64,000 bases of DNA from assembly GCF_003790525.1 (NCBI RefSeq), contig NZ_CP033635.1. One strand, written 5' to 3'. This document shows positions 4,220-52,765 of the stretch, piece by piece. The notes under the pieces are model-generated. The model made no database searches. It was not told where the DNA came from and saw only the letters and a program-made list of their open reading frames with translations. Within the stretch, counting starts at the first letter, position 1; each line of letters opens with the position of its first letter. Origin of the DNA: Escherichia coli (GTDB lineage Bacteria; Pseudomonadota; Gammaproteobacteria; Enterobacterales; Enterobacteriaceae). The translations under genes and the position numbers were made by a program.

Positions 4220-5236
4220 ATGGCCGTTAACTTACTGAAAAAGAACTCACTCGCGCTGGTCGCTTCTCTGCTGCTGGCGGGCCATGTACAGGCAACGGAA
4301 CTGCTGAACAGTTCTTATGACGTCTCCCGCGAGCTGTTTGCCGCCCTGAATCCGCCGTTTGAGCAACAATGGGCAAAAGATAACGGCGGCGACAAACTGA
4401 CGATAAAACAATCTCATGCCGGATCATCAAAACAGGCGCTGGCGATTTTACAGGGCTTAAAAGCCGACGTTGTCACTTATAACCAGGTGACCGACGTACA
4501 AATCCTGCACGATAAAGGCAAGCTGATCCCGGCCGACTGGCAGTCGCGCCTGCCGAATAATAGCTCGCCGTTCTACTCCACCATGGGTTTCCTGGTACGT
4601 AAGGGCAACCCGAAGAATATCCACGACTGGAACGATCTGGTGCGCTCCGACGTGAAGCTGATTTTCCCGAACCCAAAAACCTCCGGTAACGCGCGTTATA
4701 CCTATCTGGCGGCATGGGGCGCAGCGGATAAAGCTGACGGTGGCGACAAAGCCAAAACCGAACAGTTTATGACCCAGTTCCTGAAAAACGTTGAAGTGTT
4801 CGATACTGGCGGTCGTGGCGCGACCACCACTTTTGCCGAGCGCGGCCTGGGCGATGTGCTGATCAGCTTCGAGTCGGAAGTGAACAACATCCGCAAACAG
4901 TATGAAGCGCAGGGCTTTGAAGTGGTGATTCCGAAAACCAATATTCTGGCGGAATTCCCGGTGGCGTGGGTCGATAAAAACGTGCAGGCCAACGGTACGG
5001 AAAAAGCAGCAAAAGCTTACCTGAACTGGCTCTACAGCCCGCAGGCGCAAACCATCATCACCGACTATTACTACCGCGTAAATAACCCGGAGGTGATGGA
5101 CAAACTGAAAGACAAATTCCCGCAGACCGAACTGTTCCGCGTGGAAGACAAATTTGGCTCCTGGCCGGAAGTGATGAAAACCCACTTCACCAGCGGCGGC
5201 GAGTTAGACAAGCTGTTAGCGGCGGGGCGTAACTGA
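4220..5236 (+). CDS. cysP: Thiosulfate/sulfate ABC transporter periplasmic binding protein
   Basis: 338-aa ORF with signal peptide; first gene of the cysPUWAM cluster. Confidence 0.95.
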
Positions 5237-6069
5237 TGTTTGCAGTTTCATCAAGACGCGTGCTGCCGGGCTTTACCTTAAGCCTCGGCACCAGTCTGCT
5301 GTTTGTTTGCCTGATTTTGCTGCTGCCGCTCTCCGCGCTGGTGATGCAGCTCTCTGAGATGAGCTGGGCGCAGTACTGGGAGGTGATCACCAACCCGCAG
5401 GTGGTCGCAGCCTATAAAGTGACGCTGCTGTCGGCGTTTGTCGCGTCGATTTTTAACGGCGTTTTCGGTCTGCTGATGGCGTGGATCTTAACCCGCTATC
5501 GCTTTCCGGGCCGCACGCTGCTTGATGCGCTGATGGATTTACCCTTTGCGCTGCCAACGGCAGTCGCCGGTTTAACGCTGGCCTCGCTCTTTTCCGTGAA
5601 CGGTTTTTACGGTGAATGGCTGGCGAAGTTTGATATCAAAGTCACCTATACCTGGCTGGGGATCGCGGTGGCGATGGCCTTTACCAGCATTCCGTTTGTG
5701 GTGCGTACCGTGCAGCCGGTGCTGGAAGAGTTAGGCCCGGAATATGAAGAAGCGGCGGAAACGCTTGGCGCAACGCGCTGGCAGAGTTTCTGCAAAGTGG
5801 TGCTGCCGGAACTTTCTCCGGCGCTGGTGGCGGGCGTGGCGCTGTCGTTTACCCGTAGTCTTGGTGAATTTGGCGCGGTGATTTTCATCGCCGGGAACAT
5901 TGCCTGGAAGACGGAAGTGACGTCGCTGATGATTTTTGTTCGCTTACAGGAGTTTGATTACCCGGCGGCGAGCGCGATTGCTTCGGTGATCCTCGCGGCA
6001 TCCCTGTTGCTGCTGTTCTCAATTAACACTCTGCAAAGTCGCTTTGGTCGGCGTGTGGTAGGTCATTAA
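5236..6069 (+). CDS. cysU: Sulfate/thiosulfate ABC transporter permease
   Basis: 277-aa polytopic membrane protein; start overlaps the cysP stop (ATGA-type coupling). Confidence 0.95.
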   Translation: MFAVSSRRVLPGFTLSLGTSLLFVCLILLLPLSALVMQLSEMSWAQYWEVITNPQVVAAYKVTLLSAFVASIFNGVFGLLMAWILTRYRFPGRTLLDALMDLPFALPTAVAGLTLASLFSVNGFYGEWLAKFDIKVTYTWLGIAVAMAFTSIPFVVRTVQPVLEELGPEYEEAAETLGATRWQSFCKVVLPELSPALVAGVALSFTRSLGEFGAVIFIAGNIAWKTEVTSLMIFVRLQEFDYPAASAIASVILAASLLLLFSINTLQSRFGRRVVGH

Positions 6070-50114: not shown

Positions 50115-51353
50115 ATGGCTGACACTCGCCCTGAACGTCGCTTTACGCGTATTGATCGTCTCCCGCCCTACGTTTTTAATATTACCGCTGAACTGAAAAT
50201 GGCTGCGCGTCGGCGCGGCGAAGATATTATCGATTTCAGTATGGGTAACCCGGACGGTGCGACTCCGCCGCATATCGTCGAAAAATTATGTACGGTGGCC
50301 CAGCGCCCGGACACGCATGGTTACTCCACGTCGCGCGGCATTCCGCGGTTACGTCGCGCCATTTCCCGCTGGTATCAGGATCGCTACGGCGTTGAGATCG
50401 ACCCGGAATCAGAAGCTATCGTCACCATTGGTTCGAAAGAGGGACTGGCGCATCTGATGCTGGCGACGCTGGATCATGGTGACACTGTACTGGTGCCTAA
50501 TCCAAGCTACCCGATTCATATTTACGGCGCGGTGATTGCCGGGGCGCAGGTACGCTCAGTGCCGCTGGTGGAAGGTGTCGATTTCTTCAACGAACTGGAA
50601 CGCGCCATTCGCGAAAGTTATCCGAAACCGAAGATGATGATCCTCGGCTTCCCGTCGAACCCAACCGCGCAATGCGTGGAGCTGGAATTCTTTGAGAAGG
50701 TTGTGGCGCTGGCGAAACGCTACGATGTGCTGGTGGTCCATGACCTGGCCTATGCCGATATCGTCTACGATGGCTGGAAAGCGCCGTCAATCATGCAGGT
50801 GCCAGGTGCACGCGATGTGGCGGTCGAGTTCTTTACGCTGTCGAAAAGTTACAACATGGCGGGCTGGCGTATCGGCTTTATGGTCGGTAACAAAACGCTG
50901 GTCAGCGCGTTGGCACGTATTAAAAGCTATCACGATTACGGCACCTTTACGCCGTTGCAGGTGGCAGCGATTGCGGCGCTGGAGGGCGATCAACAGTGCG
51001 TGCGCGACATTGCTGAACAGTACAAACGCCGCCGTGATGTACTGGTAAAAGGGCTGCATGAAGCGGGCTGGATGGTCGAAATGCCGAAGGCTTCGATGTA
51101 TGTCTGGGCGAAAATCCCGGAACCATATGCGGCCATGGGTTCACTGGAATTTGCCAAGAAGCTGCTTAACGAAGCGAAGGTCTGTGTCTCTCCAGGGATT
51201 GGCTTTGGCGACTACGGCGACACCCATGTTCGCTTTGCACTGATTGAAAACCGCGATCGTATTCGCCAGGCGATTCGTGGAATTAAAGCGATGTTCCGTG
51301 CCGACGGTTTACTACCCGCCAGCAGCAAACATATTCACGAAAACGCGGAATAA
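50115..51353 (+). CDS. alaC: Glutamate-pyruvate aminotransferase (PLP-dependent)
   Basis: 412 aa from [23 protein letters not shown]..., class I aminotransferase with [10 protein letters not shown] lysine motif. Confidence 0.95.
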
Positions 51354-51373
51354 ACACCATCGCCAGAAATGCA

Positions 51374-51400
51374 AACAGGAGCCAGATGGCTCCTGTTTTT
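51374..51400 (+). terminator. Rho-independent terminator of alaC
   Basis: caggagcc-agat-ggctcctg followed by ttttt. Confidence 0.65.
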
Positions 51401-51417
51401 CATTGCACAGTTTGCTT

Positions 51418-51489
51418 TTAGATCATCAGGGCAAAAGTACCGGCCCAAACGATGACCATAAAAGAAATGCCCATAAAGAAATATTTCAC
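51418..51489 (-). CDS. ypdK: Small membrane protein YpdK (23 aa), GTG start
   Basis: Reverse-strand gtgaaatatttctttatgggcatttcttttatggtcatcgtttgggccggtacttttgccctgatgatctaa = MKYFFMGISFMVIVWAGTFALMI, preceded by ggagag; below the ORF-track size cutoff. Confidence 0.55.
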   Translation of the reverse strand: MKYFFMGISFMVIVWAGTFALMI

Positions 51490-51844
51490 TTTACATCTCT
51501 CCGCGTAATTACTGTTACGCCTGAATGACTTCATTACACCTGATACAGTGAGTTGACACCGGGCAAAACGACCTTAAAAGTCCTGTATTTTACCGTGGGC
51601 ATCACCCCAGAATTCTGAGCTAAACTGCTCCAGACGGCGCTAATGTACGCCTAAAACTGAAACGAGACAAGAGGCATTTTCTTATTTACTTTTAGTAACT
51701 TACAGGTGTCTCATATCGGCGACAGTTTAATTTCTGACGGTAATAATTAGAGATTCAGCGAAGGAAAAAACCTTAAGAAAAAAGCCATAAAAACCATGAG
51801 GTTATTATGGCTGATTTGAGGAGGGAAAGAGTAAGAGCAGTTTG

Positions 51845-52765
51845 TTAAATGTATAGCGACGATTCTCCCACCGGGCGCGTTTTAAAGCGACGGTGGATCC
51901 ATAGGTACTGCTCCGGTGCGCGCATGATCTCTTTTTCGATAATCTTGTTCATATAGGCAGCGGCTTGATTTTCATCTGCCGGGTAGCCTTCCATCTCTGG
52001 GGTGATGTACAAACGATATCCGCTGTAATCCGCTTTTCTTACCATCGTTACGGTTAACATGGCTGCGCCAGAGAGACGTGAAAGGACATACGTACCATTG
52101 GTTGTGGCAACATTTTCCACCGCAAAGAACGGCGCGAAGGAGCTGCCTTTACGACCATAATCCTGATCGGGAGCAAACCATACCGCTTCACCTTTCTTCA
52201 GTGCACCGACAATGCCGCGCAGATTATTTCTGCCGATCATCGCTTTGTTAGAGCGCATGCGACCACGGGTCTGCACCCATTCCATCAGCTGATTATTATG
52301 TGGACGATAGGTGGCCATCATTGGCTGACAAAGTCCCATCACGCGGCCGCCCAGTTCCAGCGACATAAAATGGACGCCGACAACCATTACGCCGCGATTT
52401 TGCATTTGTGCGCGTTTAAGATTATCCAACCCTTCAACATCAAACCATTTACGTACGCGACTGTCGGGCCAGAACCACGCCATGCCGGTTTCTACCAGCG
52501 CCATGCCGAGTGAACGAAAGTTTTCGGCAATCATCTTCTCGCGTTCTTCCGCAGAATGCTGCGGGAAACAAAGTTCCAGGTTTTTACGGGCGATAGATTC
52601 ACGCCGTTTCAGGAATGGTCGCGCCATTGCGCCAATACGCGTGCCGAGAAAGCAGAGAACAGGATAAGGAAGTTGTACCCAAAGCCAGAGTACACCAAGC
52701 CCAAACCATGTGAGCCAGTAGCGAGGATGCAGAAACTCGCGGGAAAATTTGCATTGTGGAAACAT
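51845..52765 (-). CDS. lpxP: Lipid A palmitoleoyltransferase (cold-induced lauroyl/palmitoleoyl acyltransferase)
   Basis: 306 aa from MFPQCKFSREFLHPRYWLTWFGLGVLWL... Confidence 0.92.
   Translation of the reverse strand: MFPQCKFSREFLHPRYWLTWFGLGVLWLWVQLPYPVLCFLGTRIGAMARPFLKRRESIARKNLELCFPQHSAEEREKMIAENFRSLGMALVETGMAWFWPDSRVRKWFDVEGLDNLKRAQMQNRGVMVVGVHFMSLELGGRVMGLCQPMMATYRPHNNQLMEWVQTRGRMRSNKAMIGRNNLRGIVGALKKGEAVWFAPDQDYGRKGSSFAPFFAVENVATTNGTYVLSRLSGAAMLTVTMVRKADYSGYRLYITPEMEGYPADENQAAAYMNKIIEKEIMRAPEQYLWIHRRFKTRPVGESSLYI

Follow-up and report, generated by a model that had tools for sequence, protein, structure and literature searches.

AcrZ, KdpF, CydX/AppX and MgtS are small accessory or regulatory subunits of larger membrane proteins. 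Each has fewer than 50 residues and is essentially one transmembrane helix, and their partners have been identified: AcrB for AcrZ, KdpABC for KdpF, cytochrome bd for CydX and AppX, and MgtA and PitA for MgtS. KdpF, CydX and AppX are moreover encoded in the operon of their partner. A second group with which a very short membrane peptide may be compared is that of the type I toxins (Ibs, ShoB, TisB, DinQ and Ldr), short hydrophobic peptides with long structured leaders whose distribution is typically patchy and multi-copy. YpdK of Escherichia coli, a 23-residue peptide that Hemm and colleagues reportedly detected as a tagged protein in 2008, is like the first group in its size and its single predicted helix, and like the second in its hydrophobicity and in the long structured leader described below. 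Its gene, ypdK, is among the 18 small membrane proteins from Hemm et al., 2008 (as stated in PMC3009722) and has been in the K-12 annotation since that small-protein survey; the protein is listed with 23 amino acids and the sequence MKY|FFMGISFMVIVWAGTFAL|MI, identical to the one found here (PMC10470546 Table S1).

The DNA analysed here (the window) is a stretch of 64,000 nucleotides from another E. coli genome, in which alaC lies at 50115..51353 on the plus strand and lpxP, in the RefSeq annotation, at 51845..52765 on the minus strand, so that the two genes converge on a gap of 491 bp. The elements that we assign to this gap are the following:

51418..51489, minus strand: coding sequence of ypdK, 23 codons and a TAA, with the GTG start at 51489..51487 and the stop at 51420..51418
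51497..51502, minus strand: Shine-Dalgarno sequence GGAGAG, 7 nt before the GTG (9 nt counting GGAG only)
51503..51520, minus strand: leader hairpin GCGTAA-cagtaa-TTACGC, 6 bp, the 3' arm of which ends at the Shine-Dalgarno sequence
51615..51633, minus strand: candidate 5'-proximal leader hairpin CTGGAGC-agttta-GCTCAG with one bulge, from per-sequence folding
51490..51636, minus strand: predicted 5' untranslated leader of ~146 nt, its start placed from the -10 element
51642..51670, minus strand: putative sigma-70 promoter of ypdK, with -35 TTGTCT at 51670..51665, a 17-nt spacer and -10 TACATT at 51647..51642
51671..51761, minus strand: conserved promoter-upstream region, an A/T-rich tract and an inverted repeat, from a 22-genus alignment
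51373..51398, both strands: predicted bidirectional intrinsic terminator common to alaC and ypdK, CAGGAGCC-atct-GGCTCCTG with flanking A and T runs
51777..51812, minus strand: predicted lpxP intrinsic terminator, AGCCATAA...TTATGGCT followed by TTTTTT (-17.2 kcal/mol, z -4.85)

The initial annotation, made from the letters of the window, had picked out a 23-codon GTG-initiated ORF in the gap between the convergent alaC and lpxP, noted a strong Shine-Dalgarno sequence (ggagag) ahead of it, and named it YpdK. The translation and the gene coordinates agree with that description, and the Shine-Dalgarno sequence and the GTG start are both present and kept across the order. Read on the minus strand, which the initial annotation had left unstated and which is also the strand of lpxP, the ORF opens with GTG AAA TAT TTC and closes with ATG ATC TAA; its direct translation is VKYFFMGISFMVIVWAGTFALMI* and, with the GTG read as (formyl-)Met, its product is MKYFFMGISFMVIVWAGTFALMI. 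MG1655 (NC_000913.3) has ypdK as b4680 (YP_002791250.1, 'putative membrane protein YpdK'). The gene occupies 2496921..2496992 there, with lpxP ending 355 nt ahead of it and the end of alaC 64 nt beyond it, and the window has the identical spacing and the same 23 residues. All 72 of the 72 nt of the coding sequence are identical between K-12 and the window, and the 9 positions at which their 491-bp gaps differ all lie outside the ORF. Thus, in the comparison with the annotated K-12 gene, which had been set beforehand as the refuting test, neither sequence nor location differs. The name is borne out as well by the RefSeq CDS of K-12 DH1 and of strain 165 (WP_010723117.1), which maps onto 51418..51489 of the window, and by the NCBIfam model NF033437 (YpdK, equivalog), which scores the ORF at 57.5 bits (E 9.4e-16) against a curated cutoff of 30 bits and aligns residues 1-23 with profile positions 1-23. 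The exact peptide is named 'Uncharacterized membrane protein YpdK' by NCBI and UniRef (n=262, Enterobacteriaceae); a Pfam search with the peptide returned no family. With the same peptide, 72-nt coding sequence, GTG start and position as YpdK of E. coli K-12 (b4680; NF033437), the gene itself is without difference from that one, and on this sequence evidence we consider it nearly certain that the 23-codon ORF is E. coli ypdK, a gene that had been annotated before and that does encode a protein, and not a new one. The further remark that it is invisible to standard ORF-length filters has to be qualified, as current RefSeq/PGAP annotation carries a 'ypdK: membrane protein YpdK' feature on every E. 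coli record among the matches listed, and the NCBI pipeline calls the gene in essentially every E. coli genome. A real 23-codon gene proved recognisable from raw sequence alone.

When the gap was compared by megablast with 5426 complete E. coli genomes, it was found in 5422 of them, with a median of one occurrence per genome. Orthologues beyond E. coli were sought locally in fetched AlaC-anchored loci, a set of 80 Enterobacterales loci (one genome per species) that together with two RefSeq loci makes 82. Of these 82, 77 have a YpdK-like ORF, always on the strand opposite alaC; they include Escherichia, Citrobacter, Salmonella, Klebsiella and Enterobacter and, further out, Cedecea, Pantoea, Erwinia and Serratia. 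The five loci in which it was not found comprise one that lies at a contig edge (L004), three with no match within the flank (L068, L070 and L080) and one in which the ORF is apparently disrupted (L066). In this last locus, from Candidatus Pantoea haifensis (~4802..4840), the C-terminal half FFVLLWVGTFVLMLK is recognisable and the GTG-Lys-Tyr start is missing, and the orthologue may be a pseudogene.

In every genus ypdK lies tail-to-tail with alaC, separated from it by 36-88 nt in most loci and by ~700 nt in Serratia. On its other side, lpxP is found only in Escherichia, Citrobacter, Salmonella and the Enterobacter/Lelliottia/Leclercia group, being adjacent in only ~20 of the 77 ypdK-bearing loci, and a conserved upstream gene was sought across the genera and not found, the neighbours varying from genus to genus. 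The sole conserved neighbour is therefore the convergent alaC, which encodes a cytoplasmic aminotransferase, and the conserved genomic partner of ypdK is the 3' end of alaC, not lpxP. Eight of the nine Citrobacter loci (L005-L012, ~4880..5880) have a distance of ~1000 nt between ypdK and lpxP, as against ~360 nt, and the additional sequence contains a ~199-codon ORF on the same strand as alaC.

The GRAVY of YpdK is 1.73, its highest 19-residue Kyte-Doolittle window scores 2.12, and K2 is its one charged residue; since this hydropathy and the single charge fit one transmembrane helix and little else, we predict that YpdK is a single-pass inner-membrane protein, its 23 residues being almost all hydrophobic. 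A transmembrane segment at residues 4-21, with the N-terminus out and the C-terminus in, has likewise been predicted by TMHMM, and a YpdK HA-MBP fusion was not cleaved by RseP (PMC10470546 Table S1). Across the order, Y3, G7, S9, G17, T18 and F19 are invariant and K2, M6, W15, L21 and M22 nearly so. Six invariant and five near-invariant positions in a peptide of 23 residues are, as judged from the alignment, more constraint than membrane anchoring alone needs, and conservation of helix residues beyond the needs of anchoring is a feature that YpdK has in common with AcrZ, KdpF, CydX/AppX and MgtS. By analogy with these proteins, the role that seems to us most likely, although we hold it only tentatively and would put it somewhat short of an even chance, is that of a small subunit, accessory or regulatory, of some larger membrane protein. 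In such a scheme the single YpdK helix, once inserted in the membrane, would pack against its larger partner, and the binding would be through the invariant Y3, G7, S9 and G17-T18-F19 together with the near-invariant K2, M6, W15, L21 and M22. Unlike KdpF, CydX and AppX, ypdK is apparently monocistronic, is without a solved complex (a PDB search returned no chain with YpdK) and offers no hint of a partner through its gene neighbourhood, in which no membrane-protein gene is conserved across the orthologous loci. The papers that could be searched report no ypdK phenotype, two further papers that mention the gene are silent on its function, and the supplements of the Salmonella small-protein census contain neither the name YpdK nor its sequence.

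An alternative to the accessory-subunit role is that YpdK is a membrane-damaging peptide of the type I toxin kind, silenced by a structured leader or by an antisense RNA. It is certainly a very short hydrophobic peptide, its leader is long and structured and has a hairpin at the Shine-Dalgarno sequence, and the K-12 transcript that overlaps ypdK rises about twofold after UV (log2 1.06; PMC3009722 file S3), which recalls tisB and dinQ. However, ypdK differs from the Ibs, ShoB, TisB, DinQ and Ldr toxins in its distribution: it is single-copy, with its median of one place per genome in 5422 of 5426 E. coli genomes; it is syntenic, with a fixed position beside alaC across the order; and it is conserved order-wide under strong purifying selection. 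Neither an antisense RNA family (Rfam) nor an opposite promoter (consensus scan) was detected, both tools being insensitive, and by eye there is no complete LexA box (CTG-N10-CAG) in the promoter or the leader. We therefore think it very improbable that YpdK is a toxin of this type, and an accessory or regulatory subunit remains the reading that we prefer.

In E. coli ypdK follows lpxP on the same strand, and an lpxP-ypdK operon was considered and rejected: a strong lpxP terminator lies between lpxP and ypdK and separates the two, the ypdK promoter is conserved, and lpxP is absent from beside ypdK in most genera. From conservation and folding, it appears instead that ypdK is its own transcription unit and not a member of an lpxP operon. 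The unit would consist of a sigma-70-type promoter, a structured leader of ~146 nt, the 72-nt ORF and the terminator common with alaC. The hairpin of this terminator (51395..51376) is predicted to fold at -20.9 kcal/mol (minus strand) or -20.3 kcal/mol (plus strand), with z ~ -6, and it is conserved across genera.

Both the promoter and the terminators were assigned in this way, from conservation and folding. Almost every orthologous locus in the range from Escherichia to Serratia keeps the motif CTTGT-17-GTACATTAGC, with the version TTTATT-17-GTAAATTAGC in Pantoea and Erwinia. The motif recurs at a distance of 120-196 nt upstream of the GTG, again in almost every locus, those of Serratia, Pantoea and Erwinia included. 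A 22-genus alignment shows an almost invariant string GTACATTAG with GCGCC after it; in the window, a G+C-rich AGCGCC (51636..51641) follows the -10 TACATT. With 8 of 12 consensus matches, the ypdK promoter falls below the threshold of a consensus promoter and terminator scan of 51300..51900, which found none of the promoter and terminator elements described here. The one minus-strand 'terminator' that the scan did call lies inside the ypdK ORF, and the terminators of alaC/ypdK and of lpxP, both strong folds, were missed, which calls for caution in relying on the scan alone. The conserved -10 places the predicted transcription start near 51635, and this agrees with the tiling-array transcript of K-12 that starts 148 nt upstream of the ypdK ORF (PMC3009722 file S3).

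Conservation extends well beyond the promoter itself. The ~90 bp that precede the -35 are kept in at least 22 genera, with or without lpxP as the neighbour. They contain an inverted repeat, TGTC-N10-GACA at 51724..51707 in E. coli and TGTCG-N8-CGACA in most genera, whose centre lies ~80 nt upstream of the predicted start. In its sequence and position this repeat looks like a transcription-factor site, and it matched no known transcription-factor site. The layout as a whole (a -35, a 17-nt spacer, a -10, a G+C-rich stretch after it and an A/T-rich tract before it) recalls what we take to be the arrangement of stringently controlled promoters such as rrnB P1.

The whole predicted transcript (~265-271 nt) folds at -92.1 kcal/mol (z -4.7). 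The leader hairpin at 51503..51520 folds at -7.1 kcal/mol (z -2.3), and over 43 genera its columns covary: 84.8% of cells are paired as against 73.2% in shuffles, with 32 double-change cells as against 11.3, a value that none of 500 shuffles reaches, while shifting the partner by one column as a control lowers the pairing to ~13%. A second hairpin may form near the 5' end of the leader, at 51615..51633. The majority of 72 orthologous leaders fold into a hairpin at this place, with stem sequences that differ among them (mean dG -6.8, mean z -0.9), and RNAalifold, applied to a MAFFT alignment of the 5'-proximal leader, predicted no pairs there. Two other candidates were set aside. A long-range pairing between the leader box ATGCCCA and codons 6-8 (TGGGCAT) occurs in the minimum-energy fold of E. 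coli and, by eye, is without covariation elsewhere. The other is an upstream ORF of 22-23 codons (51534..51605, minus strand) that in E. coli starts in the leader box GAGGTGATGCC and ends in TAATG, overlapping an ATG from which the ypdK frame can be extended to 38 codons; taken from the conserved GGTGATG box (51605..51534) in the other loci, this ORF varies freely in sequence and in length, from 4 to 122 codons. The box GAGGTGATGCC itself is kept in many genera, and the cause of this conservation probably lies at the RNA or DNA level. In one locus, that of E. coli SCPM-O-B-8794 (a separate GTDB species representative, L003), the leader has a 33-nt deletion, leaving 122 nt instead of 155 nt from the -10 to the GTG; the LpxP of this strain is only 95.8% identical, and the YpdK peptide is unchanged.

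These non-coding parts of ypdK seem to be previously undescribed, a limited literature search having found no mention of the conserved promoter-upstream region or of the structured leader. It is conceivable, although we regard it as rather doubtful, that leader and promoter together form a dedicated regulatory device that times the synthesis of YpdK, or else that the ~265-nt RNA has a second function at the RNA level. The device would combine a transcription-factor site with a translational switch that senses temperature, a small RNA or a protein. If this were true, knowing the signal would open a first way into the function of YpdK, an orphan protein since 2008, and the map of conserved promoter and leader elements could be used to establish the timing of its synthesis and the purpose that this serves.

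With so much conserved around the frame, it may be asked whether the conserved element is instead a non-coding RNA, or simply the 3' regions of alaC and lpxP, and the 23-codon frame an untranslated by-product. The predicted transcript is indeed unusually structured and has conserved non-coding parts, and the frame is short enough to have arisen by chance, the same gap holding four further ORFs of 21-37 codons; it was because an ORF of this size could so arise that comparative evidence was sought. The pattern of variation is, however, of the coding type. Among 65 distinct coding sequences, the mean column entropy at codon positions 1, 2 and 3 is 0.55, 0.18 and 1.11 bits, so that third positions vary most and second positions least, and the mean pN/pS across the orthologues is 0.27. 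In distant genera pS reaches 0.6-1.0 and the peptide is retained; in comparisons with Serratia, for example, pS is 0.76-0.99, which is near saturation, and pN is ~0.2. The ypdK frame is open in all 65 sequences, whereas the other five frames are open in 12-56 of them. All 77 orthologues start with GTG and encode 23 residues (57 loci) or 24 (20 loci), and of 69 distinct orthologous upstream regions, 68 have a GGAG at a distance of 7-10 nt from the GTG. Third-position variation, a low pN/pS, an open frame and a conserved GTG and GGAG are together the signature of a translated gene. There is in addition a curated NCBIfam protein model, and no significant Rfam family, the Rfam search having returned only sub-threshold chance matches (a plastid psbJ 3' UTR and a snoRNA). 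That the frame is a mere by-product is thus hardly credible; across Enterobacterales, purifying selection acts on ypdK at the level of the protein, and the comparative work gives strong sequence-level support for its translation from the GTG.

The conserved start of ypdK, by the same alignments, is this GTG at 51489, served by the conserved GGAG. A mechanical ORF list prolongs the frame to an ATG at 51534, giving 38 amino acids, and we tried this longer form and rejected it, as Escherichia alone has the extension; the frame is closed by a stop only one or two codons ahead of the GTG in Citrobacter, Salmonella, Klebsiella, Enterobacter and many other genera. That the true product has 38 residues (MKSFRRNSNYAERCK followed by the 23) can be dismissed as exceedingly unlikely, for although E. 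coli does have the ATG-to-stop ORF (51418..51534) and an AGGTG just upstream of its ATG, the spacing between the two is only ~2 nt, the unconserved extension crosses both the Shine-Dalgarno sequence and the covarying leader hairpin, and the 23-residue form is the one adopted by RefSeq, by the MG1655 record and by NF033437. The 23-residue form with its GTG start is, by this argument, the gene. Another small feature of the start region is a conserved GATG; of 69 distinct orthologous sequences, 45 have an ATG that stands 5-8 nt upstream of the GTG. In E. coli the nucleotides between the Shine-Dalgarno sequence and the GTG (51490..51496) contain ATG-TAA, a start followed directly by a stop, out of the ypdK frame.
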